From the NCBI GenBank assembly GCA_038254115.1, contig JBBSGK010000003.1, positions 9,624 through 73,623 on the forward strand: 64,000 bases of DNA, written 5' to 3'. Position 1 is the stretch's first letter; each line of letters starts with the position of its first letter. The notes beneath the pieces are model-generated. The model saw only the letters and a list, made by a program, of their open reading frames with translations, was not told the origin of the DNA and did not search any database. The stretch comes from Candidatus Levyibacteriota bacterium. GTDB taxonomy: Bacteria; Patescibacteriota; Microgenomatia; Levybacterales; UBA12049. Below are positions 30,436 through 45,699 of the stretch, one piece after another. The position numbers and the translations under genes were made by a program.

Positions 30436-31251
30436 TTAAATACGCTGTGGCCGGAAAAAAATTAACGCAGTTGCTGCCCCAATATGGGGAACGTGTATAC
30501 CGCCGTGCCTCTCAGAAGCCAAAAATGGTCCGTCTGGATCAAGACGGCCGACCGCTGTCCTGTAGCTGCTCGAGGGATCATCCAGAACCGCAGTAAAACT
30601 ATCTGCAGGAAAGAGTCCCCGCCCATCGTTTCTATCAGCGCATTCCATATCTGCTGCTGCCCAAAATGTGGCAGGAAGAAGTACTTTTTTAATTCCTTCT
30701 AAATGTGGCTCAACCTCCTCCTTAGAGTCATCTTCAGTCCTGTTCAGTTGGGTTGTAAGAGATTGCCCAAAACTTCGTTGCAGAAATAGATCGGTCCGAT
30801 GAACAGCGATTATTGTTTCAACCGGTGGACAATAATCTCTTAAATCTGATTCTCCCATTCTAGTAAAGTACGCTAGGTCATCACTCGGAAAATGACCTGG
30901 TTTTTTAGCAATACGCTCGCCGAGGGTTAGCCTGTCGACAAAAAAAAGGTCAAAATGGGGTTCAAGGATTTTCCTCTCATCACGGGTAGGCATTCGGGCC
31001 CGCTTTAGCAGTCTATATATATTGTCGCGAACCTCAAGGGCTGATTCTTTTTCTTTTTCTGAATCTTCATGATCTTGGCCTTCATCCTTAGTCAAATTAC
31101 TTATTGCGAGTCCTACCCTGTGCCTCCACTCTGGTGTTGAACCTTTCATTTTACGCACATCTTGGAGGGTTCTCCGTACTCTCACTGCTGCTTTTTCCAT
31201 CGCTGTTGGAACTGGTAACTCCCTATGCTCAACGGTCATTAAGCAAATCAT
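30436..31251 (-). CDS. hypothetical protein encoded in a GC-rich (about 50%) segment
   Basis: 271-aa ORF; no recognised motifs; GC much higher than neighbouring genes; convergent with the oxidoreductase gene. Confidence 0.45.
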   Translation of the reverse strand: MICLMTVEHRELPVPTAMEKAAVRVRRTLQDVRKMKGSTPEWRHRVGLAISNLTKDEGQDHEDSEKEKESALEVRDNIYRLLKRARMPTRDERKILEPHFDLFFVDRLTLGERIAKKPGHFPSDDLAYFTRMGESDLRDYCPPVETIIAVHRTDLFLQRSFGQSLTTQLNRTEDDSKEEVEPHLEGIKKVLLPATFWAAADMECADRNDGRGLFPADSFTAVLDDPSSSYRTAVGRLDPDGPFLASERHGGIHVPHIGAATALIFFRPQRI

Positions 31252-31304
31252 ACACTACTATAAGTCATTTGTCAACGGAGGTCAAAGCAATTACAATTAA
31301 TATT

Positions 31305-32951
31305 GTGTCTAGTTTGCTGAAAACTCATAAAGCTGCCTTTGGTGTCGCTTTTCTTATATTAATCGGCGCGTTTCTCCGTTGCTATAATTTAAATTGGGGG
31401 GCTCCATTTTATTTCCATCCGGATGAGCGCAATATCGCATCAAGCATTACTCAGCTTGTATTCCCGACTCAGATGAACCCTCATTTTTTTGCATACGGCT
31501 CTTTGCCAATCTACATCATTTATTTTAGCGGTATGGTTACGAATTTTTTTTCTTCGTGTCACTTATCAATTACAAATTGCAAATTGTATAATGTCGAATT
31601 TGGGCACGCAATAATTATCAGCCGTTTTTATTCTGCTTTATTCTCCACCTTACTTATTCCTTTTATTTTTCTACTTGGAAAAAAAATGCACGGTCCCAAA
31701 ACAGGCCTTACAGCAGCTTTCCTTGCAACCTTTAGCGCAGGATTTATTCAGTTTGCCCACTTCGGAACCTTTGAAATGTGGCTTACATTTTTCAGTGTTC
31801 TCCTTTTTTGGTTTTGCCTTGAAGAATTAAATAAAAAAAATATCCATCACCTTTTTATTCTGCCAGCTATTTTTGCAATACTTTTGGCAATCAAAGTATC
31901 GTCCATTGCGCTACTGCCTCTTCCGCTTCTTATGATACTAATAAAAAAGCAAAACTCCTCCAAAAAACTTAAAGAGATAATTTTATTTATTGTTACTTTA
32001 TCGATAGTTTACGCAGTGACCAATCCTTTCGTCTTTTTGACAACACAAGAATTTCTCTCAAGTATAAGATATGAAGGCGGCGTTGTATTGGGCACGCTGG
32101 ACGTTTTCTACACACAATCTTTTTATAACACTATGCCAATAGTTTTCCAATTTCTCAATATTTTCCCATTTCTATTAAATCCTCTTTTTACTATTATATT
32201 CATCCCTGCCTTTTTTTATCTAATCTATAAAGGGATTAAAACAAAAAACCTATTGTTTTTATTTCTTATTTCTTACTTCTTACTTCTTTTCCTCCCCCAA
32301 GCTTTTCTTTTTGCGAAATGGACACGATACATGGTGCCGACATTGCCATTTATCTACCTTATAGTTGCAATAGCATCTATTGATTTTCTCAATATGTTAT
32401 CTAAATCCAAACGAGTATTTAGTATAAAGTATTTCGTATTAAGTATTTTCATATTGTTCACTATTGCATTCGGGATTTCTTATTTCATAACCGCATTTGT
32501 AAAACCTGATACCCGAATCGAAGCAGGCAAATTTACTCAAGCCAAAATCCAGCAAACCAGAAGAGTTTTGACTGAGCCTTATGACTTAGGAATAATCCCT
32601 TTCAATTCCCATCTCCAATATATTAACTCATTCAATTTCTACAATTTGGATCCAGAAAATAATGCTTTAAATGAAGAACTAAAAACAAAAATTTTCCAAT
32701 CTGACTATATTATATTACCAAGCCAAAGGCTTTTAAAATCCCGTTTATTAAATCCAAATAAATTCCGAAAAGGTCATGGAATTTACTCTTTATTAACAAA
32801 AGAGGCGCTTGGCTACCAAAAAATTTATGAAACACCTTGTGATATTTTCTGCAAAATCACTTACCTAAATAGTCCGGTTTTTTCATTTGAGGAGACAGCA
32901 AGTGTATTTGAAAGACCCACTGTTTTTATATTTAAAAAAGTTGCCAAATGA
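31305..32951 (+). CDS. GT-C superfamily membrane glycosyltransferase (ArnT/PMT, GT39/GT83-like)
   Basis: multi-TM; N-terminal NWGAPFYFHPDERNIAS loop paralogous to the next gene; start set at in-frame GTG 31305 because ORF-track start 31104 would overlap the convergent gene. Confidence 0.55.
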   Translation: MSSLLKTHKAAFGVAFLILIGAFLRCYNLNWGAPFYFHPDERNIASSITQLVFPTQMNPHFFAYGSLPIYIIYFSGMVTNFFSSCHLSITNCKLYNVEFGHAIIISRFYSALFSTLLIPFIFLLGKKMHGPKTGLTAAFLATFSAGFIQFAHFGTFEMWLTFFSVLLFWFCLEELNKKNIHHLFILPAIFAILLAIKVSSIALLPLPLLMILIKKQNSSKKLKEIILFIVTLSIVYAVTNPFVFLTTQEFLSSIRYEGGVVLGTLDVFYTQSFYNTMPIVFQFLNIFPFLLNPLFTIIFIPAFFYLIYKGIKTKNLLFLFLISYFLLLFLPQAFLFAKWTRYMVPTLPFIYLIVAIASIDFLNMLSKSKRVFSIKYFVLSIFILFTIAFGISYFITAFVKPDTRIEAGKFTQAKIQQTRRVLTEPYDLGIIPFNSHLQYINSFNFYNLDPENNALNEELKTKIFQSDYIILPSQRLLKSRLLNPNKFRKGHGIYSLLTKEALGYQKIYETPCDIFCKITYLNSPVFSFEETASVFERPTVFIFKKVAK

Positions 32952-34684
32952 AACTTATATTTTCAAAAGAAAAATTGATTTTATTCTTAATCCTAATTCT
33001 TGCCGCTTTTTTCCGCTTCTATAACGTCAATTGGGATGGCGGACACCAACTGCATCCTGACGAGAGGGCTATTGTCATGACAGTTGATAAGCTTCAAATT
33101 CCAAAAAACTTTTCTGATTTTTTGAGACCGGAAAGCTCGTGGAATCCGAAATTTTTTGCTTATGGTAGTTTTCCGATGTATCTACTTTTTGCTACAGGAA
33201 ACATTGCCGGTATTTTCAATCCGCTGCTTGCGCACTACGGTTCAATTAACCTAATCGGGCGGATACTCTCAGCTTTTGCGGATATTGTTACGGTTTTTTT
33301 GATTTTCAAAATTTCACGCAAACTTTTTAATTCCTCAATTGGTTACCTAGCAGCATTTTTTTATACTGTAAGCGTTCTACCCATTCAGCTTTCGCATTTT
33401 TTTGCTGTCGATACCTTATTAACCTGCTTTATAACTGCAACTCTTTATTTGCTGATCTTGTTTTATGAAAAACCCACATCTTATAAATCTCTCCTAATTG
33501 GTCTTTTTTTCGGCCTTGCGCTTGCCACCAAAATTAGCGCGCTGGTTTTATTGGTTTCAATAGGTACTGCGCTTATTGCCGATTTTATTCTGATTTTTAT
33601 AAAAAATCCCCATAAGCCAACGCATTGGTTGCCGAATTTGCCTGCTTTTTTAAAACACCTACTGCAATACGCGTTTCTTATTTTCTCAACTACTTTTATT
33701 GCTTTTATTTTTTTTGAGCCTTATGCCGTAATTGATTTTAAAAATTTTTGGGTCCAAACGCTCCAGCAATCGGCATTGACCAAGGATCCTTTTTACTTTC
33801 CATACACCCTTCAATATGTCGGTAAAATCCCCTATGCCTATGAATTCAAAAATGTTTTTCTTTGGGGACTTGGGCCAGTATTGGGAATACTAACGTTACT
33901 GGGAATGTTTTATTTTATTTATCTAAATTTTAAAAAAGGCCGGAGCCCACAGTTTACAAAGGCATTAATTATCTTAATATTTGTGGTTTCTTATGTTGCT
34001 GTTGTTGGCCGCTTTGCCGTTGGATTTATGCGCTATATGTTACCCGTATATCCTTTTTTTGCCCTCTTTGCATCTTTGCCCTCCTACCACTTTTATCAAA
34101 TTCTAAATAACCGCATAAAAAATATTTACACGCTTTTGGTTATTAGTTATTTGTTATTCGTTATTGTTTTAATCTGGCCTCTTAGCTTTATGCATATATA
34201 TAGCAAAAATAATACCAGAGTTGATGCCACTCTCTGGATAAATCAATTCATTCCGAAAGGCAAAACTGTGGCAATTGAACATTGGGACGATGGATTACCT
34301 CTGACTGATCAATCAAACTATAACATCCTTACATTGACTCTGTATGACCCTGATACGCAGCAAAAGTGGGAAACGATCAATCAACAGCTTAGGCATTCTG
34401 ACTACATAATTATAGCCTCAAATAGACTCTATACTCCTCTTCTGAGATTAACAGATTGTCAAGCACTACCACCTGATAGATGCTATCCTAAAACTTCTGC
34501 TTATTATAAAGATCTATTTGCTGAAAAACTTGGATTTCAAAAAGTTGCTGAATTCACAAACTATCCAACTGTTCCTATGCTAAATCTTCCTATAGATGAT
34601 CAGGTTGCAGACGAATCTTTTACTGTCTACGATCATCCAAAAGTAATGATCTTTCAAAAAACTGCCTCTCGTAGTAGAATATAG
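32948..34684 (+). CDS. GT-C superfamily membrane glycosyltransferase, paralogue of the preceding gene
   Basis: 578 aa, >10 TM; YNVNWDGGHQLHPDERAIVM loop motif; 4-nt overlap with upstream gene. Confidence 0.55.
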   Translation: MKLIFSKEKLILFLILILAAFFRFYNVNWDGGHQLHPDERAIVMTVDKLQIPKNFSDFLRPESSWNPKFFAYGSFPMYLLFATGNIAGIFNPLLAHYGSINLIGRILSAFADIVTVFLIFKISRKLFNSSIGYLAAFFYTVSVLPIQLSHFFAVDTLLTCFITATLYLLILFYEKPTSYKSLLIGLFFGLALATKISALVLLVSIGTALIADFILIFIKNPHKPTHWLPNLPAFLKHLLQYAFLIFSTTFIAFIFFEPYAVIDFKNFWVQTLQQSALTKDPFYFPYTLQYVGKIPYAYEFKNVFLWGLGPVLGILTLLGMFYFIYLNFKKGRSPQFTKALIILIFVVSYVAVVGRFAVGFMRYMLPVYPFFALFASLPSYHFYQILNNRIKNIYTLLVISYLLFVIVLIWPLSFMHIYSKNNTRVDATLWINQFIPKGKTVAIEHWDDGLPLTDQSNYNILTLTLYDPDTQQKWETINQQLRHSDYIIIASNRLYTPLLRLTDCQALPPDRCYPKTSAYYKDLFAEKLGFQKVAEFTNYPTVPMLNLPIDDQVADESFTVYDHPKVMIFQKTASRSRI

Positions 34685-34687
34685 GCA

Positions 34688-35725
34688 ATGATTAAAAAGG
34701 TCCTCATTACCGGCGGAACCGGATTTTTGGGTGTCCATCTGGCAAGATATTTATTAAAAAAAGGCTATAAGGTTACGCTTTTTGACTTAAGCGAGCTGGA
34801 TGCGAAAGATCTAATTGGAAAAGTAAATGTAATATTAGGCGACATAAGAAATAGTAAAGCAGTCGACAAAGCGCTTACAGGACAAGATTATGTTGTTCAT
34901 GCTGCTGCTGCCCTACCAATACAACTGGATAAAAAAATAATCTTCGGTGTAAATATTGACGGCACAAAAAATATCCTAAGAGCAGCTCTTAAAAATAAGG
35001 CTAAGCGCTTGGTCTTTATTTCATCAACCGCAGTTTATGGTGTCCCAAAACATCTTCCCGAAACAGAAACAGCACCGCTTGATCCAATAGGTAATTATGG
35101 GGTCTCAAAAATTGAGGGAGAAAAACTATGTTTGGAGTATCAGAAAAAGGGATTACAAGTAAATATTATCCGCCCCAAAACTTTTTTGGGAACGGAAAGG
35201 CTCGGGGTATTTGAATTATGGTTTGAGGCTATATACAGCAATAAAAGAGTATTTATTTTGGGCGATGGACATAATAAATACCAACTTCTTGCAGTGACAG
35301 ATGTCATAGCTGCAATAGAAAAAGCTTTAATTTCAAAGGCAAATGGAGAAATATTCAATATCGGAGCAGAAAAATTTGGGACCTGGAGATCGGATCTTGG
35401 CTTTGTCGTAAAACATGCAAAATCAAAATCAAAAATCACCTCGCTCCCAACTCTGCCTTCTCAACTTATTTTACAATTGCTTGAGACACTTAGACTTTCG
35501 CCAATTGCCGCTTGGCATTACAAAACCATGCCTGTTGACTCGTATGTTTCAATTGATAAAGCAAAAAAGCTTCTAAAATGGGCTCCTAAAAAATCAAATC
35601 AGGATTTGTTCCTTGAAAGTTACATATGGTATAAACAAAACAGAGGGAAAGTTTTGGGCCGGACCGGCAACACGCATAGAGTCGGCTGGAATTTTAAGAT
35701 ACTCAATTTAATTTCAAGGTTTTAG
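34688..35725 (+). CDS. NAD-dependent sugar epimerase/dehydratase (extended SDR)
   Basis: VLITGGTGFLGVHL Rossmann motif; YGVSK catalytic YxxxK. Confidence 0.85.
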   Translation: MIKKVLITGGTGFLGVHLARYLLKKGYKVTLFDLSELDAKDLIGKVNVILGDIRNSKAVDKALTGQDYVVHAAAALPIQLDKKIIFGVNIDGTKNILRAALKNKAKRLVFISSTAVYGVPKHLPETETAPLDPIGNYGVSKIEGEKLCLEYQKKGLQVNIIRPKTFLGTERLGVFELWFEAIYSNKRVFILGDGHNKYQLLAVTDVIAAIEKALISKANGEIFNIGAEKFGTWRSDLGFVVKHAKSKSKITSLPTLPSQLILQLLETLRLSPIAAWHYKTMPVDSYVSIDKAKKLLKWAPKKSNQDLFLESYIWYKQNRGKVLGRTGNTHRVGWNFKILNLISRF

Positions 35726-35736
35726 GCTTCAGCAAT

Positions 35737-36312
35737 ATGAATATTGGTTTTGATTTAGATAAAATTTTTATTGATTATCCGCCTTTTGTGTCACCCCGTG
35801 TAATGGACAAACTTTATAAAAAGAAGGACAACGGCGTACTGCTTTATAGAATCCCGTCTTACCCTGAGCAGCTATTAAGACGCGCATCTCACATGCCATT
35901 TCTTAGGCCTGCAATTAAACAAAATTTGGAGTTTCTAAGAAGAATTTCTAAAAAAGATAATAAGCTCTATCTTATATCTAGCCGTTTTAAGTTCCTCGAG
36001 AAACGTACTGCCAAGCTCATAAAGCGGTACGAATTAGATCAAATATTTGATGAGATGTTTTTTAACTATGCCAACTTTCAGCCCCATATCTTCAAGCAGG
36101 AAATTATCAACAACTTGAATCTTGATATCTATGTGGATGATGACCTTTCTTTAATAAGGCACGCAGCAAAAACTAATGTTAAAACTAAATTCTTCTGGCT
36201 AAATACTTTCGGGGAAAAACATATTTTGCCCCAAAACATATTCGAAATCTCAACACTCGAAGAAATATTTAAATTACAAAATCAGAAATCCGAATATCGA
36301 AATCCGAAATAA
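35737..36312 (+). CDS. HAD-superfamily-like hydrolase (tentative)
   Basis: N-terminal GFDLDKIF resembles HAD motif I (DxD); YVDDD near C-terminus resembles motif IV; 3' end encoded by a CCGAAAT heptamer array. Confidence 0.35.
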   Translation: MNIGFDLDKIFIDYPPFVSPRVMDKLYKKKDNGVLLYRIPSYPEQLLRRASHMPFLRPAIKQNLEFLRRISKKDNKLYLISSRFKFLEKRTAKLIKRYELDQIFDEMFFNYANFQPHIFKQEIINNLNLDIYVDDDLSLIRHAAKTNVKTKFFWLNTFGEKHILPQNIFEISTLEEIFKLQNQKSEYRNPK

Positions 36313-36420
36313 TTTTCGTAATTACAATTTCATAACTGTTGAATGATTTGAGGATTTGAGATTGTTTCGAATTCCTGCCTGCCGGAAGGCAAGGTCGAGC
36401 TTTGTGCTTCGAATTTGAGT
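36283..36420. repeat. heptamer arrays (CAGAAAT CCGAATA TCGAAAT CCGAAAT; ATTTGAG units) plus a GC-rich bulged hairpin (36378-36394) in the HAD-like/DUF2298 spacer
   Basis: first array encodes the C-terminus of the HAD-like gene. Confidence 0.55.
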
Positions 36421-36427
36421 ATAACTT

Positions 36428-38632
36428 ATGATTCCATCTGATATTCACGCAGTTTTGCAGTGGTGGTTGATCATCCTTCTTTTGGGAAGTGGTTTTTTGC
36501 CTCTCACCTTTCTGCTGTTTGATAAATTTTTTGACCGGGGATATATTTTTTCAAAAATCTTTGGAATTGCTTTTACCTCTTATGCAATTTTTTTACTTGG
36601 AGTTTTACATATAGCACCGTTTAATCAACTCTTCTCTATCATTATATTTCTCGTTATTTCAGCTTGGTTTTTTGCGCTGAGTCCAATAAGATTGGAGTTG
36701 ATTTCGATTTTAAAATCAAATTTAAAAATATTTATTTTTGAAGAACTACTTTTTCTAGCGGCTCTGTTTTTCTGGGCATATATTCATACGTTTAATCCCG
36801 ACATTCATGGCCTTGAAAAATTCATGGACTTTGGTTTTATAAACTCATTACTTAGGTCCAATTATTTCCCGCCTAAAGACATGTGGTTTACCCCATACCC
36901 TATCAACTATTATTATTTTGGGCACTTATCAACGGCTGTATTAACCAAGTTATCAGGTGTTCCTGCAAGAATTACTTTCAATCTAATGCTCTCAACTATA
37001 TTTGCGTTTTGTCTGAGCGAGACTTTTTCTTTGGGGGCAAATCTTTATGTTTTTATGCAAAATAATAAAAAGGTGTCACTTATCAAATCTTTTGTCACAG
37101 GCCTTTTGACAGCCTCTCTTGTTACTTTTTCAGGAAATCTTCATATCCTTTATACATTCTTCAAGCCTTACACCGGAGAAAATCCGGTTCCCTTATGGCA
37201 GTTGCCTTTTATGCCCTTTAGTTTTCCCAACTCTTATTGGTACCCAAATGCAACCCGCTTTATCCATAACACGATTCATGAATTCCCCATTTACTCCTGG
37301 GTAGTTGCGGACCTGCACGGACATGTTTTGGATATTCCTTTCGTTCTGCTAACAGTCGCCGTGCTGCTTTCAATATTTATATCCAAATCTGAAACAAGCC
37401 CAGCTACTCTAAATGCAAACAACAAACATTCTTTGAATTTAAAATATTTTAATTTTGATATTGTTTCAAGTTTAAATATTAAAATTCCATATTTACTACT
37501 AATTGGTTTCCTTCTCGCAATCATGTATATGACCAATGCGTGGGACGGAGGAATTTATCTGCTGCTTGCCTCCCTTGTGCTTTTTTCACTCTATTACAAG
37601 AGACTATCTACGTTCTTTTTTTCTCTTTTTGTAGTTTTTATAAGCTTGATTGCATTTTCCATGCCATATAGTTATTTTTTTAAGCCCTTTGCCTCAGGGA
37701 TAGGCGTACTTTGTGCGCCTAACTTTCTAACTAAAATAGGTAAACTGGGTCCATTTCTTTTTGAGAAGGAACATTGTCAGCATTCATTCTGGTGGCAATT
37801 ACTTATTCTTTACAGCTTTTTCTATTTTTTTGTTATTTCTTTCGGAATTTTTGCATATCGCGCAAAAAAATTCTTAAAAACAGATATATTTATATTTCTT
37901 CTTATCATTCTGTCTACATTTCTTATAATCTTGCCTGAATTCATTTACCTCAAAGATATTTATCCCGCACACTATAGAGCCAATACGATGTTCAAGCTGG
38001 TTTTTCAATCGTTCATCATGCTCTCTATTTCAACGGGATATATTATTACAAGAATAGTGTCCAATATTAGATTGAAATCTTTACGTGCTGGTAAAAAAGT
38101 ACTATTTATTAGTTATCTATTATTAGTTAGCGGTTTAATCTCCCTTGTTCTGACTTATCCATTCCTCGCAATTAGATCCTATTATGGTGATCTGAAAACA
38201 CAAAAAAATCTTGATGGGACTGTCTATCTTCAAACACTTTATCCTTATGATTACGAAGCAATTTCGTATATAAACAAAAATATAAAAAGCCAGCCCGTCA
38301 TTCTTGAAGCGCAAGGTGACTCATATACAGATTTTGGGAGGATTTCAGCAAATACAGGACTCCCAACTGTCCTCGGCTGGACTGTGCATGAATGGCTCTG
38401 GCGGGGAACATATGATATTCCTGCACCAAGAATTGATGAGATCAAAATAATGTATGAAACTCAGGATTTAAATATTGCTAAAAACCTGCTCAAGAAATAC
38501 AAGATCACATATATATTCATAGGGTCAATGGAATTTCAAAAATACCCTACGCTTTCTGAACCCAAATTTCAAAAGCTTGGAAAACTAATTTACCAAAATC
38601 AGAACACTAAAATCTACAAAATCTCCTATTGA
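36428..38632 (+). CDS. DUF2298 (Chlor_Arch_YYY domain) polytopic membrane protein, putative GT-C-like glycosyltransferase
   Basis: 734 aa, >15 TM helices; conserved PINYYYFGH triple-Tyr motif; family size and topology match. Confidence 0.55.
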   Translation: MIPSDIHAVLQWWLIILLLGSGFLPLTFLLFDKFFDRGYIFSKIFGIAFTSYAIFLLGVLHIAPFNQLFSIIIFLVISAWFFALSPIRLELISILKSNLKIFIFEELLFLAALFFWAYIHTFNPDIHGLEKFMDFGFINSLLRSNYFPPKDMWFTPYPINYYYFGHLSTAVLTKLSGVPARITFNLMLSTIFAFCLSETFSLGANLYVFMQNNKKVSLIKSFVTGLLTASLVTFSGNLHILYTFFKPYTGENPVPLWQLPFMPFSFPNSYWYPNATRFIHNTIHEFPIYSWVVADLHGHVLDIPFVLLTVAVLLSIFISKSETSPATLNANNKHSLNLKYFNFDIVSSLNIKIPYLLLIGFLLAIMYMTNAWDGGIYLLLASLVLFSLYYKRLSTFFFSLFVVFISLIAFSMPYSYFFKPFASGIGVLCAPNFLTKIGKLGPFLFEKEHCQHSFWWQLLILYSFFYFFVISFGIFAYRAKKFLKTDIFIFLLIILSTFLIILPEFIYLKDIYPAHYRANTMFKLVFQSFIMLSISTGYIITRIVSNIRLKSLRAGKKVLFISYLLLVSGLISLVLTYPFLAIRSYYGDLKTQKNLDGTVYLQTLYPYDYEAISYINKNIKSQPVILEAQGDSYTDFGRISANTGLPTVLGWTVHEWLWRGTYDIPAPRIDEIKIMYETQDLNIAKNLLKKYKITYIFIGSMEFQKYPTLSEPKFQKLGKLIYQNQNTKIYKISY

Positions 38633-38669: not shown

Positions 38670-38996
38670 ATGTTTCAACCTTGGGGAAATTGTGTTCAAG
38701 ATGGAGTTGCAACGCTCCGGTGCCTTCCTGTCATTTTTCATAACGTAGTAAACGGTGCTTTAATATTTGTAGGAGTTGTTGCTCTATTTCTTATAATTTA
38801 TTCCGGTATCAGGCTGATCCTATCAGGCGGTGATCCCAAACAAGTCGAAGCAGCCCGGAAAATTATGAACTACGCAATACTGGGCGCCATACTTGTCCTA
38901 TCTTCTTTTGCAATTTTGTACTTTATCGCCTATGTTACCAACTCTAAAGACTGCATTAGCAATATTGAATCTATCAGCACGGGGGGATGCAAATAA
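38670..38996 (+). CDS. VirB2/TrbC-like T4SS pilin (tentative)
   Basis: 108 aa: leader, then two hydrophobic helices separated by a short polar loop (SGGDPKQVEAARK), the VirB2/TrbC architecture; located immediately upstream of VirB3/VirB4-like genes. Confidence 0.45.
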   Translation: MFQPWGNCVQDGVATLRCLPVIFHNVVNGALIFVGVVALFLIIYSGIRLILSGGDPKQVEAARKIMNYAILGAILVLSSFAILYFIAYVTNSKDCISNIESISTGGCK

Positions 38997-39100
38997 TTAT
39001 CCATAAGTTTTCACAAGCGAGCCTTACCATGTATTCCGTTTGACCTACTTTGTAGGAGTTGCATTGCTATTTTTCACGTTATACACTTTTTGTACTAGCA

Positions 39101-40387
39101 ATGGACCAACACCCAATACCACAAAACGTAACAGGGTTTCAATTTAAACTTATAGGGGCGATGACTGTCAAACAATTTGGCTATGTTGCAGTAGGAGTAA
39201 TTGCGGCATTCGTTACTTACTATATACCTATACATGGATTCTTTGCGATAATTTTTAAAATCTTTATGATTCCTCTCCTAGGAGCAAGCGGACCCGTGCT
39301 GGCATTTGTTCCTGTTGACGGCAGACCAATCGATGTAATGACAGGCAATTTTGTAAAAGCTCTTTTATCTCCAAATCAATATGTGTATCACAAGGGTGTT
39401 AAAAAGTTTAGCTTTTCAACCGTATCCCTCTCCAAGCCAAAGCCCACATCGGCTGAACACAAAGCGCCCAGTACCCCAAAGCAAAAAATGATTAATGAAA
39501 GAGGACATGAATTACAAAAACTTTTAATAAGAAGTTCCGGGACAAAAATAAAAAACGCTCAGGATGAACATGAAGCTGCATTTCTTAACTCTATTTTGTC
39601 AACCCAACCGGCAGCTGCGCCTCTCCCTGCCTCAACTCATTCTCCTCTGCCCACAGTCTCTGTGGAATTACCAACTCCCGAGCCTAAAGTTGCGGAAACT
39701 AAGCCACTAATTATTTCACCGCCTACAAATAAACCGACTCCAGAGATTCTTTCCGAAAAGGAGGAAGCTCTAAAAAAACAATTGGATTTTACCAAGCGGG
39801 AAGAGACATCTCCGCATTCTACAACGGATCTTTCCGCAATTCATCAAAAAGCGGGTATTTTAGAAAAACAGGTTCAGGAAATTCATACGCAGAAACAGGC
39901 GCTCGAGGAAGAAATTCTGCAATTAAAAAAACAGCTTTCAACTCAGCAAACAACGACTACTTCCCCAGCTGCAAAAAACGCTATCGTAAGCACGCCTACT
40001 CCCTTCCCCCCCCTTAAGCAACAACCCCCACATGTACGAAGCGTCCCAAAAGAACAAAACAAGCGCCTTGGAATTTTTGTATCTGATACTCCAAATGTAG
40101 TCTCGGGCATGGTTAAGGATGCGCGGGGAAATGTGCTACCCAACATTCTTGTTGAAATAAAAGACAAGGCGAGCAATCCAGTTAGGGCATTCAAAACAAA
40201 CGCTCTTGGCAACTTTGCATCGGCAACGCCACTTGCAGCAGGAACTTATACGATTACGCTTGAAGATTTGAAAAAGCAGCATACATTTGATTCAATTCAG
40301 ATTACAGCAAATGACCAAATTATGCTTCCTATTGAAATCATATCTTATGACAAACGTGAAGCCCTGCGAAAGGATTTGTTTAGCTAA
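39101..40387 (+). CDS. PrgI/VirB3-like membrane domain fused to a coiled-coil, Pro-rich linker and a C-terminal carboxypeptidase-regulatory-like (Cna-B-type) beta-sandwich domain
   Basis: N-terminus FQFKLIGAMTVKQFGYVAVGVIAAF... resembles PrgI family (IIGPLTLRQ.IYL.IGGG) two-TM module; C-terminus GMVKDARGNVLPNILVEIKD...TNALGNFAS...AGTYTITL; start chosen at ATG 39101. Confidence 0.45.
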   Translation: MDQHPIPQNVTGFQFKLIGAMTVKQFGYVAVGVIAAFVTYYIPIHGFFAIIFKIFMIPLLGASGPVLAFVPVDGRPIDVMTGNFVKALLSPNQYVYHKGVKKFSFSTVSLSKPKPTSAEHKAPSTPKQKMINERGHELQKLLIRSSGTKIKNAQDEHEAAFLNSILSTQPAAAPLPASTHSPLPTVSVELPTPEPKVAETKPLIISPPTNKPTPEILSEKEEALKKQLDFTKREETSPHSTTDLSAIHQKAGILEKQVQEIHTQKQALEEEILQLKKQLSTQQTTTTSPAAKNAIVSTPTPFPPLKQQPPHVRSVPKEQNKRLGIFVSDTPNVVSGMVKDARGNVLPNILVEIKDKASNPVRAFKTNALGNFASATPLAAGTYTITLEDLKKQHTFDSIQITANDQIMLPIEIISYDKREALRKDLFS

Positions 40388-40390
40388 GCT

Positions 40391-41068
40391 ATGAGCGCTG
40401 CCCAAAAAATTCATGCGTCAACCCAAAAGTTTACTGAGATAGTAGACTTTGTTGAAAACGTGGTTGTTATGGAGGGAGGCAGCGCATGTCTTGTAATTGA
40501 AATTACAGCAAGTAATTTTGCTCTTTTGTCCAAAAGGGAACAGGACAGCAGAATTTTTTCATACGCATCTCTTCTTAATTCCCTATCCTTCCCTATTCAA
40601 ATATTAATACGCAATAAAAGAATTGACATTACCTCATACATAAAGGACCTTGAGGATGTTATTAAAAGCAGCAAAAATCCACGGCTTCAGACATATATCG
40701 GTTATTACCGTGATTTTGTTCAGGAGATGGTAACTGTCAACGTTGTTTTAAACAAGTCTTTTTACATAATTATTCCTTTTTCTTCGCTTGAGATGGGGAT
40801 CTCAGGCGCAAAACAAGCGACGCAAAAAAATCAAAAAACAAATGCACAGACGAAGAATCTACCTGAAGGAGCAGCAAAAAGCCTGCAGTCAAAGGCCCAA
40901 ACAGTACTTACACAATTGCAAAAATTTGCAGTGTCTGCGAAAATTCTCGAGCGCGAAGATTTAATTAAACTCTTTTATGACATTTACAATAATGGGGCAA
41001 ATATCGAAGTCGAGCAGATTGAGCCGGCTGGCGGAGCATCAATTGTAACCGGAGGAGCAAAAACATGA
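40391..41068 (+). CDS. hypothetical protein resembling the extreme N-terminal module of Gram-positive-type VirB4 ATPases (possible split VirB4, part 1)
   Basis: VVMEGGSACLVIEITASNFALLSKREQDSRIFSYASLL...QILIRNKRID resembles the start of PrgJ/Tn916-Orf16-type VirB4 proteins; stop overlaps next start (ATGA). Confidence 0.35.
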   Translation: MSAAQKIHASTQKFTEIVDFVENVVVMEGGSACLVIEITASNFALLSKREQDSRIFSYASLLNSLSFPIQILIRNKRIDITSYIKDLEDVIKSSKNPRLQTYIGYYRDFVQEMVTVNVVLNKSFYIIIPFSSLEMGISGAKQATQKNQKTNAQTKNLPEGAAKSLQSKAQTVLTQLQKFAVSAKILEREDLIKLFYDIYNNGANIEVEQIEPAGGASIVTGGAKT

Positions 41069-43245
41069 AATTGCCTTTTTTTAAAAAATCATCAACCCTC
41101 CCCGCAGGTACACCTTCTGCTGCTAGCGGCATGAAGCAAACCGCAGCCCCTACCAAAACCGCCGGGGCAAGCAAATCTATTGAGTCTGTAGAAAAAGGCC
41201 TAACTTCCATAATTGATATTATTGCTCCTTCGTCAGTTGAGGTTGATTTTCGCTACATCCGCGTTGGAGACTCTCTATACACAACGCTTTTTATCGCAGG
41301 GTATCCCCGCTATGTTTCCCCTGGTTGGCTTCAGCCAATTATTGATTACGATCACACATTGGACATTTCTATGTTCTGTTACCCAACGTCGTCATCAGAC
41401 GTTCTCACAGATTTGAAGCGGAAAATTGGGGAAATGCAGGCAACGCTTTCATCTGATGCGGAGTCGGGAAAAGTAACGGATCCCACTGTTGAAGCGGCGC
41501 TTGAGGATGCTCTGGGACTTCAGGAGGAACTTGCGAAAGGAATTGAGAGATTTTTCCAGTTTGGATTTTACATTACTGTCTCTGCTCTCGACCTGCCCGA
41601 ACTTCAGCAAACTGTAAAAGAACTTCAAACCACCCTTGGCTCTCTTCTTCTTGCTGCAAAAACAGCAACTCTTCAAATGGAAGAAGGATTCAAGTCAACC
41701 TTGCCCTTGGGACTTGATAGACTCTATATTACCCGCAATATGGACACATCATCCCTTGCGTCAACCTTTCCTTTTACCTCGGCTATTCTGACGCAGAATA
41801 AAGGGGTAATGTATGGTGTTAACCAGCAAAATGGATCCCTGATTATTTTTGACCGTTTTTCTTTGGAAAACGCCAATGAGGTAGTCTTGGGTAAATCAGG
41901 TGCCGGAAAATCTTATTGCATTAAACTTGAGATTGCGCGGCAATTTATGCTTGGGGCTGAGGTAATTGTAATTGATCCCGAGGGTGAATACGAGACATTA
42001 ACGCCTGCATTAGGTGGGGAAGTTGTTGATTTCTCATCAAGTTCTGAGATAAAAATTAATCCTTTTGACCTTTCTGATGTTTACGAGGAAGGCGAGAATG
42101 AATTGGGACTCAAAATCTTGTCTTTGCATGGATTATTAAAACTGATTACTGGCGATTTAGACGCAGAACATGACGCAATTTTGGACAGGGCGCTTATTGA
42201 GTGCTACCGCCAAAAAGGAATTACGACAGATCCACTGACACAAAGAAAGCAACCTCCACTTATGGAAGACTTATACAAAACTCTTTTGGGAATGGAGACC
42301 CAACCGGCAAAAGATCTCGCATATAGATTAGAAAAATTCATCAAAGGATCAGCTGCCGGTATATTTAACCAGCAGTCAAATTTTGAGATCAATAACCCGC
42401 TTACTGTTTTTTCAATCCGCAATCTGGAAGAGGAACTCCGCCCTGTTGCTATGCATATTATTCTTGATTTTGTCTGGACAAAGATAAAAAAGAATTTAAA
42501 AAAGCGTATTCTAATTCTGGACGAAGGCTGGTATATGATGAAGTATCAGGATTCTGCCTCATTTGCATACTCTATCGCCAAGCGGGCCCGAAAATACTAC
42601 CTCGGCATGACAACCGCAACGCAGGATGTTGAGGATTTTCTTAAAAATGAATATGGAAAGGCTGTTTTGACCAATTCTTCAATCCAAATCCTTTTAAAAC
42701 AAGGCACTGCTGAGGTTGACATGATTGCCAATACTTTTTACCTTTCCGAAGGTGAGAAAGCGTTACTTTTATCATCAGATGTAGGGGAGGGATTATTTTT
42801 TGCAGGACAGAACCATGTAGCTATGAAAGTTTTTGCTGCTCCTTTTGAACATGAATTAATCACATCAAACCCAATTGAGCTTTTAAAGCGCCAAGAGGAC
42901 AAAGAAGCTGCTATTACCCAGTCCAGACTTGAAGATGGCGGACCCGTTCAGGCTACTATCCCTCACGCAGAACCACCCATTCCTCCTACGCCAGCGCCTT
43001 CCGCTCCCATTAATCCTGCTATAGCTTCAATTGACACGCCCCCGGTGGTTACAAATGGACCCACAGCATTACCTTCTCAATCACCATATAGCGCTTCGAA
43101 TCCACATGCATCACCAGTTTCTCCCGTTGCTTCATCACCGCCTGATACACATCCCTCGCCTGAAATTATTCCACCCGTTATGTCAACTTCTACACAATCA
43201 CCCACCGCCCCCATTGTGACAACGCCAGTTTTACCAAAGGTTTAA
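41065..43245 (+). CDS. VirB4/TrbE/CagE-family T4SS ATPase with Pro/Ser/Thr-rich C-terminal extension
   Basis: Walker A VLGKSGAGKSY, Walker B ILDEGWYMM (DEAW-type), motif C RKYYLGMTTATQDVEDF; N-terminal CagE_TrbE_VirB-like region IIAPSSVEVDFRYIRVGDSLYTTLFIAGYPRYV. Confidence 0.85.
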   Translation: MKLPFFKKSSTLPAGTPSAASGMKQTAAPTKTAGASKSIESVEKGLTSIIDIIAPSSVEVDFRYIRVGDSLYTTLFIAGYPRYVSPGWLQPIIDYDHTLDISMFCYPTSSSDVLTDLKRKIGEMQATLSSDAESGKVTDPTVEAALEDALGLQEELAKGIERFFQFGFYITVSALDLPELQQTVKELQTTLGSLLLAAKTATLQMEEGFKSTLPLGLDRLYITRNMDTSSLASTFPFTSAILTQNKGVMYGVNQQNGSLIIFDRFSLENANEVVLGKSGAGKSYCIKLEIARQFMLGAEVIVIDPEGEYETLTPALGGEVVDFSSSSEIKINPFDLSDVYEEGENELGLKILSLHGLLKLITGDLDAEHDAILDRALIECYRQKGITTDPLTQRKQPPLMEDLYKTLLGMETQPAKDLAYRLEKFIKGSAAGIFNQQSNFEINNPLTVFSIRNLEEELRPVAMHIILDFVWTKIKKNLKKRILILDEGWYMMKYQDSASFAYSIAKRARKYYLGMTTATQDVEDFLKNEYGKAVLTNSSIQILLKQGTAEVDMIANTFYLSEGEKALLLSSDVGEGLFFAGQNHVAMKVFAAPFEHELITSNPIELLKRQEDKEAAITQSRLEDGGPVQATIPHAEPPIPPTPAPSAPINPAIASIDTPPVVTNGPTALPSQSPYSASNPHASPVSPVASSPPDTHPSPEIIPPVMSTSTQSPTAPIVTTPVLPKV

Positions 43246-43264
43246 ATTTTGTTACTATTAAAAT

Positions 43265-45088
43265 ATGGATGACACAGATACATTGGAACCCGAAGCAGGA
43301 GAGGAGGCCTCAGATTCAACCCCTGAAGAAAGTCAGGAGCCTGACCAAAGTAGCAACAGTAGCCAAGAAACTCAAACAAATCAAAGCCCACAATCCAGTG
43401 GATCTGGCCAAAAAGACCAAACGAGGCAAAAACCCGGCGGCATGAGTAGATTGGGAAAGCAGTTTACAAAAGGAGCCGGCGGTCCCGGCGGAGGAGGGGG
43501 CCCTGGAAAGGACATAGCCAAAAAGGGGCTAGGTAAACTTGGGATTGGCAAGAAAGATAGCGGGGAATCCCGTGGGCAAGAGTTAAAAAACCGCGGGAAA
43601 GAAGCCGGGAAGAAGATGGGGAAAAAAGCGGGAAAAAAAGTTGGAAATTTTGCTGCCCAGCTTGGAAAGAAAGGGGTTGCTGCAGCTGTAGAAAATCCTT
43701 ATGTTGCAGGAGCACTAGCCATTATACTACTTATTGTTGTCCTAATATTTATTATTATCCAAGGTAACGCTGCAGCAGGAGATGAGGCAAATCCATTAAC
43801 TATTACCAAATCAGGTCCCGCTGAGGCAAAAGTAAATGATAAGCTTACTTACCAAATTGCTGTTGCGTATGCAGGAACCGTACAGGACATAACTGTCACT
43901 GACCATGTCCCTGACGGAGCTGAATTTGATCCCTCAACTCCTCCCCCCGCCCACTATGATCCTGCAACGAGGACTGTTACATGGAGCATAAAAGAAATAA
44001 GTCCTCCTAACGCTGGAGGTGGTAACCCTTCAGCGAACCAAGTAAACATCATAGGCGACTCTCTAACCGATCAATCAAGGGCTGATATACAAGATCAGCT
44101 CCCCGGAGCTGTTATTGACGCGAAGACTAGCCGTCCATGGAGCGCTGGTGTAAGCATAGTTTCCGACCTTAAAAATAGCAATAAGCTGACTCCCGTCGTT
44201 GTATTTGCTCTTGGCACAAATAACTCTTCTTTGTCCACTGGGGATATAGATAATCTTTTAAATGCTTCCCAGGGCAGTCAGATCATTCTTGTTACTACTT
44301 ATAACCTCGTTCACACCGATTGGGCGAACAATGTAAATAGCACTTTAAAGGCTGCAGCAAGCGCTCATGCCGACAGGATAAAGATTGCTGATTGGGCTGC
44401 AGTAGCCAACCCCGGACTTATTGATAATTCTGATGGGCTTGGAGTGCATCCAACGATTCCATCCGGTAATCAGGCATTTGCAAAGGTTATTGCAAGCGCA
44501 GTATCAGGCGGCGCAAGCGGAGGAATAAGCCATCCAAACACTACCCTCACTCTTAACTTAAAAGCGACCACAGATAATACTTATGTAATCAACCAAGCAG
44601 TGGCAACAGCTATAGGCGGCGTGCCAGACAGCAGCGGTGGGGGTGGAGGCGGCGGGGGTGGGCCTGTTGACGGAAATTATGTTCCCCCGAACCAAAACGA
44701 TTGTGGCGGAAAGTACAAATTTAACAATCCTGTTGGAAACTTCGGTGATCCGAATTGCAACTTTGACAAAAATGCCCTTCATGAAATGCTGACGCAGCAA
44801 GATCCCGCAAATGCTGATTTTTGGTTTTTAAAAGTCATTCCTTGCGAGAGCAGTTATGATCCCAACTCATATTCTTCGCATCAGTCAATCGGCACACCTG
44901 ATCTAGCGGGAGCGTGGGGATTATATCAAATGGGAAGCAGTAAGCCTCCAGGCAGTCCGCCGCCCTCGCCTGGCAATAACGGACCTAATGATCGGGGGGA
45001 TGTTAATTGGCCTGTTCAGACAAGCAACGCTGTTACATACAGTAAGAAAATCAGTAGCATAGGAGCATATTGGGCCTGTGGAAGATGA
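43265..45088 (+). CDS. multidomain envelope protein: disordered cytoplasmic N-terminus, TM, DUF11 repeat domain, SGNH/GDSL esterase domain, C-terminal family-1 lytic transglycosylase (SLT)-like domain
   Basis: TM AGALAIILLIVVLIFIII; DUF11-like LTITKSGPAEAKVNDKLTYQIAV...ITVTDHVPDGAEF; GDSL motif IIGDSLTD plus DGLGVHPT (DxxH); SLT motif CESSYDPNSYSS...AGAWGLYQM (ES...AGAxGLMQ). Confidence 0.65.
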   Translation: MDDTDTLEPEAGEEASDSTPEESQEPDQSSNSSQETQTNQSPQSSGSGQKDQTRQKPGGMSRLGKQFTKGAGGPGGGGGPGKDIAKKGLGKLGIGKKDSGESRGQELKNRGKEAGKKMGKKAGKKVGNFAAQLGKKGVAAAVENPYVAGALAIILLIVVLIFIIIQGNAAAGDEANPLTITKSGPAEAKVNDKLTYQIAVAYAGTVQDITVTDHVPDGAEFDPSTPPPAHYDPATRTVTWSIKEISPPNAGGGNPSANQVNIIGDSLTDQSRADIQDQLPGAVIDAKTSRPWSAGVSIVSDLKNSNKLTPVVVFALGTNNSSLSTGDIDNLLNASQGSQIILVTTYNLVHTDWANNVNSTLKAAASAHADRIKIADWAAVANPGLIDNSDGLGVHPTIPSGNQAFAKVIASAVSGGASGGISHPNTTLTLNLKATTDNTYVINQAVATAIGGVPDSSGGGGGGGGGPVDGNYVPPNQNDCGGKYKFNNPVGNFGDPNCNFDKNALHEMLTQQDPANADFWFLKVIPCESSYDPNSYSSHQSIGTPDLAGAWGLYQMGSSKPPGSPPPSPGNNGPNDRGDVNWPVQTSNAVTYSKKISSIGAYWACGR

Positions 45089-45129
45089 CAATTTGTGTTA
45101 ATCAAATATAGTGTATAAATAAATCATAT

Positions 45130-45699
45130 ATGAAAATCAAAAAAGAACATCTGATCTTGATTATATTCTCAGCAGTGATGCTTCTTATAGTTTTTGCTAT
45201 TGCGTACTTGGCATTGACAACTCCCACGAAACCGAATAATAAACCTATTGGTACTATTTCTCCTTCCCCTGTTTACACTGGCCACATTGCTATTTCTCCT
45301 ACTCCTGTAAATCCAGGAGTACCACCTGTCTCTTACAGTTCTGATGCAACTGATAGGCTAATAGAAAAAGTCCAAAACCATCCGCAGCTTTCGGATTCTG
45401 ATATTGCTGCAAAGCAAAAAATACTCTCTTTTTTGCCACAGGGCAAAACATCCGGATATGTATATCAGTCCTCAACTGTTCAAATTGAATACCTCAAATC
45501 CCCGGACGCTTTCCTGGCCGAAATCCTGACCATTGATATCGCGCAATCTAAAAAAGACGCAGTCAACTGGTTTAAGGTACAAGGAATGAGTCAAAAGGGT
45601 ATTTGCGACCTCCCTGTTTCTTTTTATCTCAATTCTAGAGTCGCAAATCAATTAAGAAATTTAAATATTAAATTTAGTCCGTTGGCTGAAGGGTGTTAA
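45130..45699 (+). CDS. secreted/membrane-anchored hypothetical protein
   Basis: 189 aa, N-terminal signal anchor, Pro-rich linker. Confidence 0.4.
   Translation: MKIKKEHLILIIFSAVMLLIVFAIAYLALTTPTKPNNKPIGTISPSPVYTGHIAISPTPVNPGVPPVSYSSDATDRLIEKVQNHPQLSDSDIAAKQKILSFLPQGKTSGYVYQSSTVQIEYLKSPDAFLAEILTIDIAQSKKDAVNWFKVQGMSQKGICDLPVSFYLNSRVANQLRNLNIKFSPLAEGC

Follow-up and report, generated by a model that had tools for sequence, protein, structure and literature searches.

An OatA-C-type SGNH domain nested in the CLIPPER stalk of a predicted VirB1/PrgK-like wall hydrolase at a Patescibacteria type IV secretion locus

In a 64-kb stretch of DNA from Candidatus Levyibacteriota bacterium (contig JBBSGK010000003.1; this whole stretch is called the window here), the gene directly downstream of a VirB4-type ATPase encodes a 607-aa protein predicted to be a type IV secretion system (T4SS) wall hydrolase of a known kind, the VirB1/PrgK-like. 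Two enzyme-like domains, SGNH and lysozyme-like, lie on this one membrane-anchored protein, as a first-pass annotation of the window had proposed. Judging from sequence comparison and a structural model, we regard both as real, despite the absence of direct matches to hidden Markov models (HMMs). With moderate confidence, we propose that the protein is a peptidoglycan-remodelling subunit, anchored in the membrane and equipped with an accessory de-O-acetylase, of the monoderm-type T4SS of Levybacteria-like Patescibacteria. Its best reading is as the equivalent of VirB1 in diderms and of PrgK or TraG in Gram-positive bacteria. Not described in the literature searched are an SGNH domain in such hydrolases, its nesting in a CLIPPER domain, and a lysozyme-like family in the post-VirB4 slot across Microgenomatia.

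RESULTS

Architecture of the protein

The protein is encoded by the open reading frame (ORF) 43265..45088 (+), the sole long ORF at these positions, which begins 19 nt past the end of the VirB4-like ORF 41065..43245. This agrees with the size and placement given at first pass. At 90% identity, the protein forms a singleton cluster among ~15 billion proteins. Its parts are listed below, with P and L numbers designating related proteins and loci; P0008 is the syntenic counterpart of the protein in locus L001.

43265..45088 (+): whole gene, VirB1/PrgK-slot T4SS wall hydrolase, single-pass membrane protein (ORF, cluster search, synteny)
43265..43702 (+): low-complexity N-terminal region, residues 1-146, predicted cytoplasmic (composition; homology to P0008)
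43703..43759 (+): transmembrane helix VAGALAIILLIVVLIFIII, residues 147-165 (best 19-residue Kyte-Doolittle window, mean 3.53)
43772..44014 (+): CLIPPER/DUF11 Ig-like domain, first part, residues 170-250, with K182 (43808-43810) and D213 (43901-43903) (Pfam DUF11 at 178-246, TIGR01451)
44015..44551 (+): nested OatA-C-type SGNH domain, residues 251-429, with predicted key residues S266 (44060-44062), T288, N319 (44219-44221), D390 (44432-44434) and H395 (44447-44449) (phmmer and profile versus PDB; conserved motifs)
44552..44629 (+): CLIPPER/DUF11 second part, residues 430-455, with N443 (44591-44593) (match to the stretch after the first part in P0003, P0006, P0008 and others)
44630..44674 (+): Gly-rich linker including GGGGGGGGG, residues 456-470 (read from sequence; segment GC 0.76)
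44675..45085 (+): C-terminal lysozyme-like domain, residues 471-607, with predicted key residues C480/C498, C527-E528-S529 (44843-44851), D546 (44900-44902), G549-Q555 and C605

Composition counts bear out the earlier description of a disordered N-terminus that is first acidic (14 D/E versus 3 K/R in residues 1-60) and then Gly/Lys-rich and basic (23 G and 21 K/R in residues 61-143), and residues 7-145 are homologous to the N-terminus of P0008. A single strong hydrophobic helix follows at 147-165, again as first noted. Since the basic stretch lies N-terminal of this helix, the positive-inside rule predicts an N-in/C-out orientation. No cleavage or secretion signal was identified in the protein. 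Given the E-values and the conservation across 53-plus homologues, we consider chance excluded as the source of the domain matches.

The SGNH domain is related to OatA-C

Searches of Pfam and NCBIfam with the protein detected only DUF11 and gave no SGNH match even at E ≤ 1, Lipase_GDSL_2 included, and no SLT match; the lack of both enzyme matches is what the first-pass annotation had named as counting against its own proposal. Evidence for the SGNH domain comes from its homologues. When residues 150-607 were used as a query, one group of proteins shared DUF11 and the C-terminal domain, while a more distant group shared only residues ~255-425. The latter group includes OafA/OatA-type acyltransferases, in which an AT3 domain (PF01757) is followed by a C-terminal SGNH domain. 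A search with the SGNH domain alone gave 2 proteins, and a profile search gave mostly short stand-alone SGNH proteins. Relatives of the domain match PF13472 over its full length, below threshold, and many of the stand-alone ones carry PF13472.

Among solved structures, the SGNH domain alone matched the C-terminal domain of Streptococcus pneumoniae OatA (5ug1/5ufy) with an E-value of 2e-8 by phmmer, and that of Staphylococcus aureus OatA with an E-value of 5e-5. A profile of 18 SGNH relatives (alignment A2) extended these matches to 1e-33 for 5ug1/5ufy and 2e-30 for 6wn9/6vjp, with the next chains at 1e-5 or worse. With this profile, no Ape chain appeared at E ≤ 1, and PatB gave E-values of 0.015-0.04. 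By these matches, then, the SGNH domain is of the OatA-C type and not of the Ape type, contrary to what the first-pass annotation had assumed.

Invariant columns in two alignments of SGNH relatives (A2 and A4) include the GDS at 264-266, which contains S266 and corresponds to the GDSL-type motif reported earlier, ALGTN (N319), a Trp and His395. The reported downstream DxxH (DGLGVH) did not hold up: in the motif SDGLGVH, D390 lies 5 residues before His395. However, D390 aligns with the canonical Asp of P0041 (SDG--IH), the target having a 2-residue insertion before the His, and by this alignment we regard D390 as homologous to the canonical Asp. In a single alignment of whole ectodomains (MAFFT), all SGNH-only sequences but the two closest were misplaced, and this alignment was set aside.

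The SGNH domain is nested in a CLIPPER domain

DUF11 was detected just below the Pfam cut-off (E 5e-5; 24.1 bits against 24.6) and just above that of TIGR01451 (24.8 bits against 24). The first-pass annotation had placed a DUF11 repeat ahead of the SGNH domain; the repeat is indeed present, but it is split around the SGNH domain rather than separate from it. Residues 170-258 and 425-462 each match P0003, P0006 and P0008, and in these relatives, which lack SGNH, the two stretches are ~5 residues apart. Contiguity of the two parts in the SGNH-less proteins argues that the SGNH domain is a nested insertion in a DUF11/CLIPPER loop. Gly-rich joints flank the insert (…PPNAGGGNPSANQ–SGNH–SGGASGGISHPNTT…). 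Recent foreign origin of the segment is not supported, as its GC content equals that of its flanks.

DUF11 was recently renamed CLIPPER, a CnaA-like Ig fold with a Lys-Asn isopeptide bond whose formation is catalysed by an Asp (PMC12617251). Residues at all three sites are well conserved in 23 relatives of the target (K182 in 20, D213 in 22, N443 in 21), and K182 and D213 precede the SGNH insertion while N443 follows it. A K182-N443 isopeptide bond would lock the stalk around the inserted enzyme.

The C-terminal domain defines a divergent lysozyme-like family

The C-terminal domain belongs to a family of 481 clusters at 50% identity, in which it is essentially always C-terminal, and all members seen so far come from T4SS loci of Patescibacteria. 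Fourteen positions are invariant in 53 sequences (E59, S60, D77, G80, W82, G83, Q86, G88, D107, G109, W113, Q116, Y133 and W134, in domain numbering), the first three being E528, S529 and D546 of the full-length protein, and G552-L553-x-Q555 is invariant or nearly so. Both C480 and C498 are Cys in 52 of the 53 sequences, and C527 and C605 covary in 51 (both present in 45, neither in 6). This pattern fits two disulfides in an exported domain.

A family-1 lytic transglycosylase signature with an ES-x10 spacing had been read into this region. The ES and AGAWGLYQ elements are there (CES...GAWGLYQ at 527-555), but they are spaced by 18 residues, not 10. No SLT match (PF01464) was obtained for the target at E ≤ 10. 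In 12 of 31 relatives, sub-threshold matches (E 0.017-0.17; 12-14 bits, cut-off 21.3) cover profile positions 16-47, the ES…GLMQ segment. The family profile had no match at E ≤ 10 among PDB sequences, and hhalign comparisons of the family with hen lysozyme (E 0.12) and with the SLT domain of P0041 (E 0.25) were not significant. In the better AlphaFold model of the domain (predicted local distance difference test 92.2, predicted template modelling (TM) score 0.88), a helix spanning 48-60 (domain numbering) ends at the Glu-Ser, with E528 at the helix end; the first-pass annotation had suggested a structural check of this Glu. Foldseek with this model returned only c-type lysozymes, with non-significant E-values and TM scores of 0.42-0.52. 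Taking motif and model together, we regard the domain as a distinct, divergent lysozyme-like family with an SLT-like catalytic motif. It would act either as a lytic transglycosylase or as a muramidase; for comparison, PrgK's SLT-like domain is a muramidase (PMC12857230). The spacing of Glu528 and Asp546 resembles that of Glu35 and Asp52 in the hen enzyme, but we dropped Asp546 as an Asp52 equivalent, as hhalign pairs it with Asp48.

The gene occupies the VirB1/PrgK slot

Genes in the window follow a monoderm-type T4SS operon order: pilin, PrgI-like, TraC-like, VirB4, the target, a 189-aa gene, a 203-aa gene, an M23 peptidase and a 351-aa gene. We searched GTDB, one genome per species, for the C-terminal domain and obtained 41 loci, titled Levybacteria, Daviesbacteria, Curtissbacteria or 'Patescibacteria group', with some titles evidently wrong. 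Essentially all of those with enough flank keep the order pilin(s), PrgI, TraC-like, VirB4, a protein with a variable N-terminal part and the C-terminal domain, and the 189-aa homologue, often followed by M23 and then by the 203/351-aa homologues. The C-terminal domain is thus the constant feature of the VirB4-adjacent gene. This locus order corresponds to prgI-prgJ-prgK-prgL of pCF10, which puts the target in the PrgK (VirB1) slot. The VirB1 position assigned at first pass is consistent with this, the gene being directly downstream of VirB4 here and in nearly all of the 41 loci.

A 2025 survey found canonical VirB1 homologues rarely beside virB4 in most Patescibacteria classes; it suggests that other glycosidases take the VirB1 role, pointing out that in S. 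epibionticum essential 'peptidase and lysozyme homologues' follow virB4 closely (PMC12102498).

Among the relatives, a T4SS locus of Patescibacteria type occurs in many metagenome-assembled genomes titled 'uncultured Gammaproteobacteria' and in some titled Sulfotelmatobacter, Limnocylindrales, Methylomirabilota or Lysobacterales. The loci with seemingly wrong titles are L002, L003, L007-L009, L016, L019-L025, L027, L030, L034, L035, L038 and L041. Upstream of the PrgI-like gene, the window has a single pilin gene, while relatives have arrays of 2-6 divergent ones (L002-L006, L011, L024-L028, L035, L036, L038, L039); such arrays have been reported for Microgenomatia and Saccharimonadia (PMC12102498), with which those seen here agree.

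SGNH domains recur on wall hydrolases

Locus L001, whose core T4SS proteins are 58-88% identical to those of the window, gives an example of domain shuffling. Its VirB4-adjacent protein, P0008 (459 aa), is the target minus SGNH; P0017, two genes downstream, begins with an SGNH domain 62% identical to that of the target and also has a weak M23 match. The corresponding downstream slot of L037 encodes a fusion of SGNH and a CHAP domain. In these two SGNH-bearing loci, then, SGNH is not on the VirB4-adjacent protein. Elsewhere in the family, the position of SGNH or that ahead of the C-terminal domain is taken by DPBB (P0002, P0027), 3D (P0018) or an M15_4 peptidase (P0029, L002). In the search across genomes that was suggested at first pass, the exact architecture was seen only once, in the target itself, but fusions of SGNH with hydrolase domains recur:

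P0044: M23+SGNH+NlpC/P60, beside a T4 coupling protein and a TrwC relaxase
Corynebacterium MOBF plasmid protein: M23+SGNH+NlpC/P60, on a conjugative plasmid, annotated only as 'peptidoglycan DD-metalloendopeptidase family protein'
P0034: SGNH-containing, two genes after a VirB4
P0038-40: Phage_lysozyme2+SGNH; the P0039 locus has PEGA and unannotated genes, with no T4SS marker in a 9.5-kb contig
P0041: M23+SGNH+SLT

This recurrence supports, more strongly than any other evidence here, the idea that the SGNH domain works with wall cleavage. Corynebacterium examples are L047 8377-10518 (C. kefirresidentii plasmid NZ_CP067011.1), OV884290.1 and NZ_CP069515.1.

Neighbouring genes

The T4SS cluster (38670-48648, +) adjoins dnaN and dnaA (48639-51263, −). 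Apart from the target, it comprises:

38670-38996 (+): T4SS pilin (Pfam)
39059-40387 (+): PrgI/VirB3-like protein with a CarboxypepD_reg domain (Pfam)
40391-41068 (+): 225-aa TraC-like protein (PF26593 recorded on the 82%-identical orthologue in L001)
41065-43245 (+): VirB4-type ATPase, 726 aa (P-loop_TraG E 4e-25, DUF87, AAA_10)
45130-45699 (+): conserved 189-aa protein (homologues in the same order in related loci)
45693-46304 (+): 203-aa protein (homologues in related loci)
46311-47591 (+): M23 peptidase (Pfam)
47593-48648 (+): 351-aa protein, two copies of the 203-aa unit (paralogy with the 203-aa protein)

The adjacency to dnaN and dnaA places the cluster at the replication origin. Likewise, the T4SS locus of S. 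epibionticum lies at the genome start, with locus tags SEML1_0006-0019 (PMC10633639). Upstream of the pilin (31104-38632, +) are two PMT_2 GT-C glycosyltransferases, an NAD-dependent epimerase, a 191-aa unknown and a DUF2298 membrane protein, and the adjacency of DUF2298 and pilin is kept in L001, L005 and L014. These genes hint at a T4SS-linked glycosylation of pilin or envelope.

Downstream, the 189-aa protein has a hydrophobic N-terminus and no match in Pfam or among PDB sequences. Its slot corresponds to that of PrgL/VirB8 in pCF10, and VirB8 is reported to go largely undetected in Patescibacteria (PMC12102498). Homologues of the 203-aa protein and of its 351-aa paralogue end most of the related T4SS loci; the two may be double-domain proteins of the TcpC/VirB8 type, and the 351-aa protein has no match among PDB sequences. 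The M23 peptidase has ~260 further C-terminal residues with a weak match to the HEIGH metallopeptidase family M57 (E 0.0055), which may be a second peptidase domain.

DISCUSSION

A proposed two-step model for wall opening

In the model that we propose, the disordered N-terminus would reside in the cytoplasm and one helix would anchor the protein. Outside the membrane would stand a CLIPPER Ig-like stalk, with an OatA-C-derived SGNH domain looped out from one of its turns and a poly-Gly tether holding the lysozyme-like domain. The SGNH domain (predicted Ser266, His395 and Asp390, with Asn319 in the oxyanion hole) would strip 6-O-acetyl groups from N-acetylmuramic acid (MurNAc), after which the lysozyme-like domain, with Glu528 as the predicted catalytic residue, would cut the bond between MurNAc and N-acetylglucosamine locally. 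The neighbouring M23 peptidase would cut peptide cross-links, and jointly these activities would make a hole for the T4SS channel or pilus. Peptidoglycan is the presumed substrate, in the cell's own wall or in that of a host.

Such a division of labour has a rationale in wall chemistry. O-acetylation at C6 of MurNAc blocks lytic transglycosylases outright and hinders lysozymes. Diderms with an O-acetylated wall carry Ape1 to reverse acetylation. In Neisseria, Ape1 licenses the transglycosylase LtgA, and the two proteins form a complex in which each stimulates the other (PMC6174289, PMC7083599). In Gram-positives, OatA is not known to be paired with an Ape-like esterase (PMC6174289).

Because the SGNH domain is fused to a wall hydrolase and has no membrane acyltransferase partner, it would be expected to work hydrolytically: no AT3 homologue was found in the protein or anywhere in the 64-kb window. 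Residue 288 bears on the same point. An invariant Val/Ile in the Block II loop of OatA-C promotes transfer, and in the S. pneumoniae enzyme (SpOatA) V460G/A substitutions raise hydrolysis and cut transfer to 10-21%, i.e. 5-10 times less (PMC5697884). The target has Thr288 at the position of Val460, where AT3-fused relatives have V/I (8 of 9), hydrolase-fused relatives have V (7), D (4) or T (2), and 65 of 121 stand-alone relatives have V/I. Thr288 points to hydrolysis over transfer, although it is suggestive only. Most simply, an SGNH domain without acetyl donor, mounted on a wall hydrolase, would be an esterase that prepares the substrate for the lysozyme-like domain; from this we infer both the esterase direction and the two-step order, de-O-acetylation and then cleavage.

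Several observations weigh against this interpretation. SGNH is absent from 39 of the 41 related loci and from all 129 further family representatives, and so is dispensable for the system. Val is kept in 7 of 13 hydrolase-fused and in about half of the stand-alone relatives, which makes the Val-to-Thr argument weak. The nearest characterised relatives of the domain are transferases, not esterases, and the canonical DxxH is missing. PatB offers a caution here, having first been misnamed an esterase (Ape2) from homology (PMC6174289). Finally, the de-O-acetylation scheme has as its premise that the peptidoglycan of the organism or its host is O-acetylated.

Alternative explanations

The SGNH domain might instead act as an O-acetyltransferase, acetylating MurNAc around the channel to limit or shape the hole, a form of substrate-level control of autolysis. 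The closest solved relatives are the OatA-C transferases, the domain has the G(T/V)N motif and a Block II lacking Gly, as in OatA (PMC5697884), and accessory domains of PrgK are thought to be regulatory (PMC12857230). However, with no AT3/MBOAT partner in the protein or the window there is no apparent acetyl donor outside the membrane, Thr occupies the position of OatA's transfer Val/Ile, and all fusion partners of SGNH are wall-degrading; we consider this explanation quite improbable. An esterase acting on another substrate, such as O-acetyls of teichoic acid or surface polysaccharide of the cell or host, or a lipid, could clear the path or aid recognition. SGNH esterases also act on surface glycans as parts of phage tail proteins. 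Many stand-alone relatives carry the name lysophospholipase L1-like esterase in their source records, and SGNH enzymes act on many carbohydrates and lipids (PMC9487903). Against this, the nearest characterised homologues act on peptidoglycan MurNAc and every fusion partner found is a peptidoglycan hydrolase domain, and we deem another substrate unlikely.

It would also be conceivable that one or both enzyme-like domains are non-catalytic modules for binding or regulation, with the M23 peptidase or others cleaving the wall. In PrgK, only the middle muramidase domain is active, while LytM and CHAP seem regulatory (PMC12857230), and the SGNH domain here lacks a canonical DxxH and is absent from most orthologous loci. 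Yet relatives keep the Ser, Asn and His of SGNH without exception, as they do the Glu-Ser, Asp and GxWGxQ of the C-terminal domain, which is constant in the VirB4-adjacent gene of the 41 loci, and we give little credence to non-catalytic domains. The protein might also attack the wall of an epibiont's host, instead of or besides the cell's own, with SGNH as an adaptation to O-acetylated host peptidoglycan. Variable modules (SGNH, DPBB, 3D, M15_4) ahead of a constant C-terminal domain look like lineage-specific adaptation, and the Patescibacteria T4SS is essential for epibiotic growth in a role not yet known (PMC10633639, PMC11665869). But an N-terminal helix and short stalk would tether the protein as in PrgK and TraG, both of which work on the wall of the donor itself (PMC12857230), and no cleavage or secretion signal was identified, leaving only a slim chance in our estimate that the host wall is the target.

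Implications

If our interpretation of a wall hydrolase with an accessory de-O-acetylase is right, de-O-acetylation would be an added chemical step in the crossing of thick walls by T4SSs, beyond SLT, muramidase, CHAP and LytM. The protein would then be a candidate O-acetylpeptidoglycan esterase for Gram-positive-type bacteria, which are not known to have one. In the post-VirB4 slot, the constant lysozyme-like domain would fill the 'missing VirB1' of Patescibacteria surveys, and the swappable inserted modules would be testable handles on wall or host specificity. A broader idea, which we offer tentatively and as less likely than not, is that SGNH domains derived from OatA-C but lacking AT3 are the missing O-acetylpeptidoglycan esterases of monoderms, repeatedly recruited into T4SS wall hydrolases (in Patescibacteria and on Corynebacterium conjugative plasmids) and into tail-lysozyme-like proteins, and licensing cleavage of O-acetylated walls. 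On this broader idea, the SGNH module of epibiotic Patescibacteria could reflect host wall chemistry and thereby help set host range, and nesting an enzyme in an isopeptide-stapled CLIPPER domain would be a novel means of fixing a catalytic domain to a rigid stalk. The Corynebacterium plasmid hydrolase provides a culturable system for testing the role of SGNH.

Comparison with known systems

The C-terminal domain shares with c-type lysozymes, EtgA of the type III secretion system and DslA of Bdellovibrio a Glu-Ser that closes a helix and precedes a GLxQ strand, but it differs in its low identity (13-18%), non-significant Foldseek matches, a long Pro/Gly-rich loop and another Cys pattern. Like the CLIPPER stalks of fibrillar adhesins (PDB 9IFR), the stalk has an HMM match and conserved Lys, Asp and Asn at the isopeptide sites (PMC12617251). 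Whereas the adhesins have tandem stalks, the target has a single copy that serves as an enzyme scaffold and is interrupted by a 180-residue domain between the Asp- and Asn-bearing strands.

For the SGNH domain, OatA-C (S. pneumoniae 5UFY/5UG1, S. aureus 6VJP/6WN9) is the best sequence match among solved structures, and the two have in common the GDS, the G(T/V)N oxyanion Asn, the His and a Block II without the usual Gly. Unlike OatA, the target has no AT3 membrane domain, has Thr for the transfer-promoting Val/Ile and carries a two-residue insertion between Asp and His; its SGNH domain is embedded in a wall hydrolase, so hydrolysis would be likelier than transfer. The proposed logic resembles that of Ape1 and LtgA, in which an SGNH esterase frees the C6 hydroxyl of MurNAc for a glycan cleaver. 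Ape1 and LtgA are two proteins, however, and covalent fusion in the target would unite such partners in a single polypeptide; Ape is found in the periplasm of diderms, and no specific sequence relationship to Ape is detectable in the target SGNH.

The closest parallels are PrgK of pCF10 and TraG of pIP501, which likewise have a cytoplasmic N-terminal stretch, one helix and extracellular wall-degrading domains, and are encoded beside VirB4 in an operon of the PrgI/PrgJ type (PMC12857230). In this class as in the target locus, a glycan-cleaving domain of lysozyme/SLT fold goes with an M23/LytM-type peptidase, which in the target locus is a separate gene. The described repertoire of this class of monoderm hydrolases is only SLT, muramidase, CHAP and LytM (PMC12857230), whereas the glycan-cleaving domain of the target is a separate family below the SLT HMM threshold and its CLIPPER stalk holds a nested SGNH domain. 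What marks the class, a membrane anchor and an extracellular wall-hydrolase domain on a protein encoded in a T4SS operon beside VirB4, is found in the target as well.

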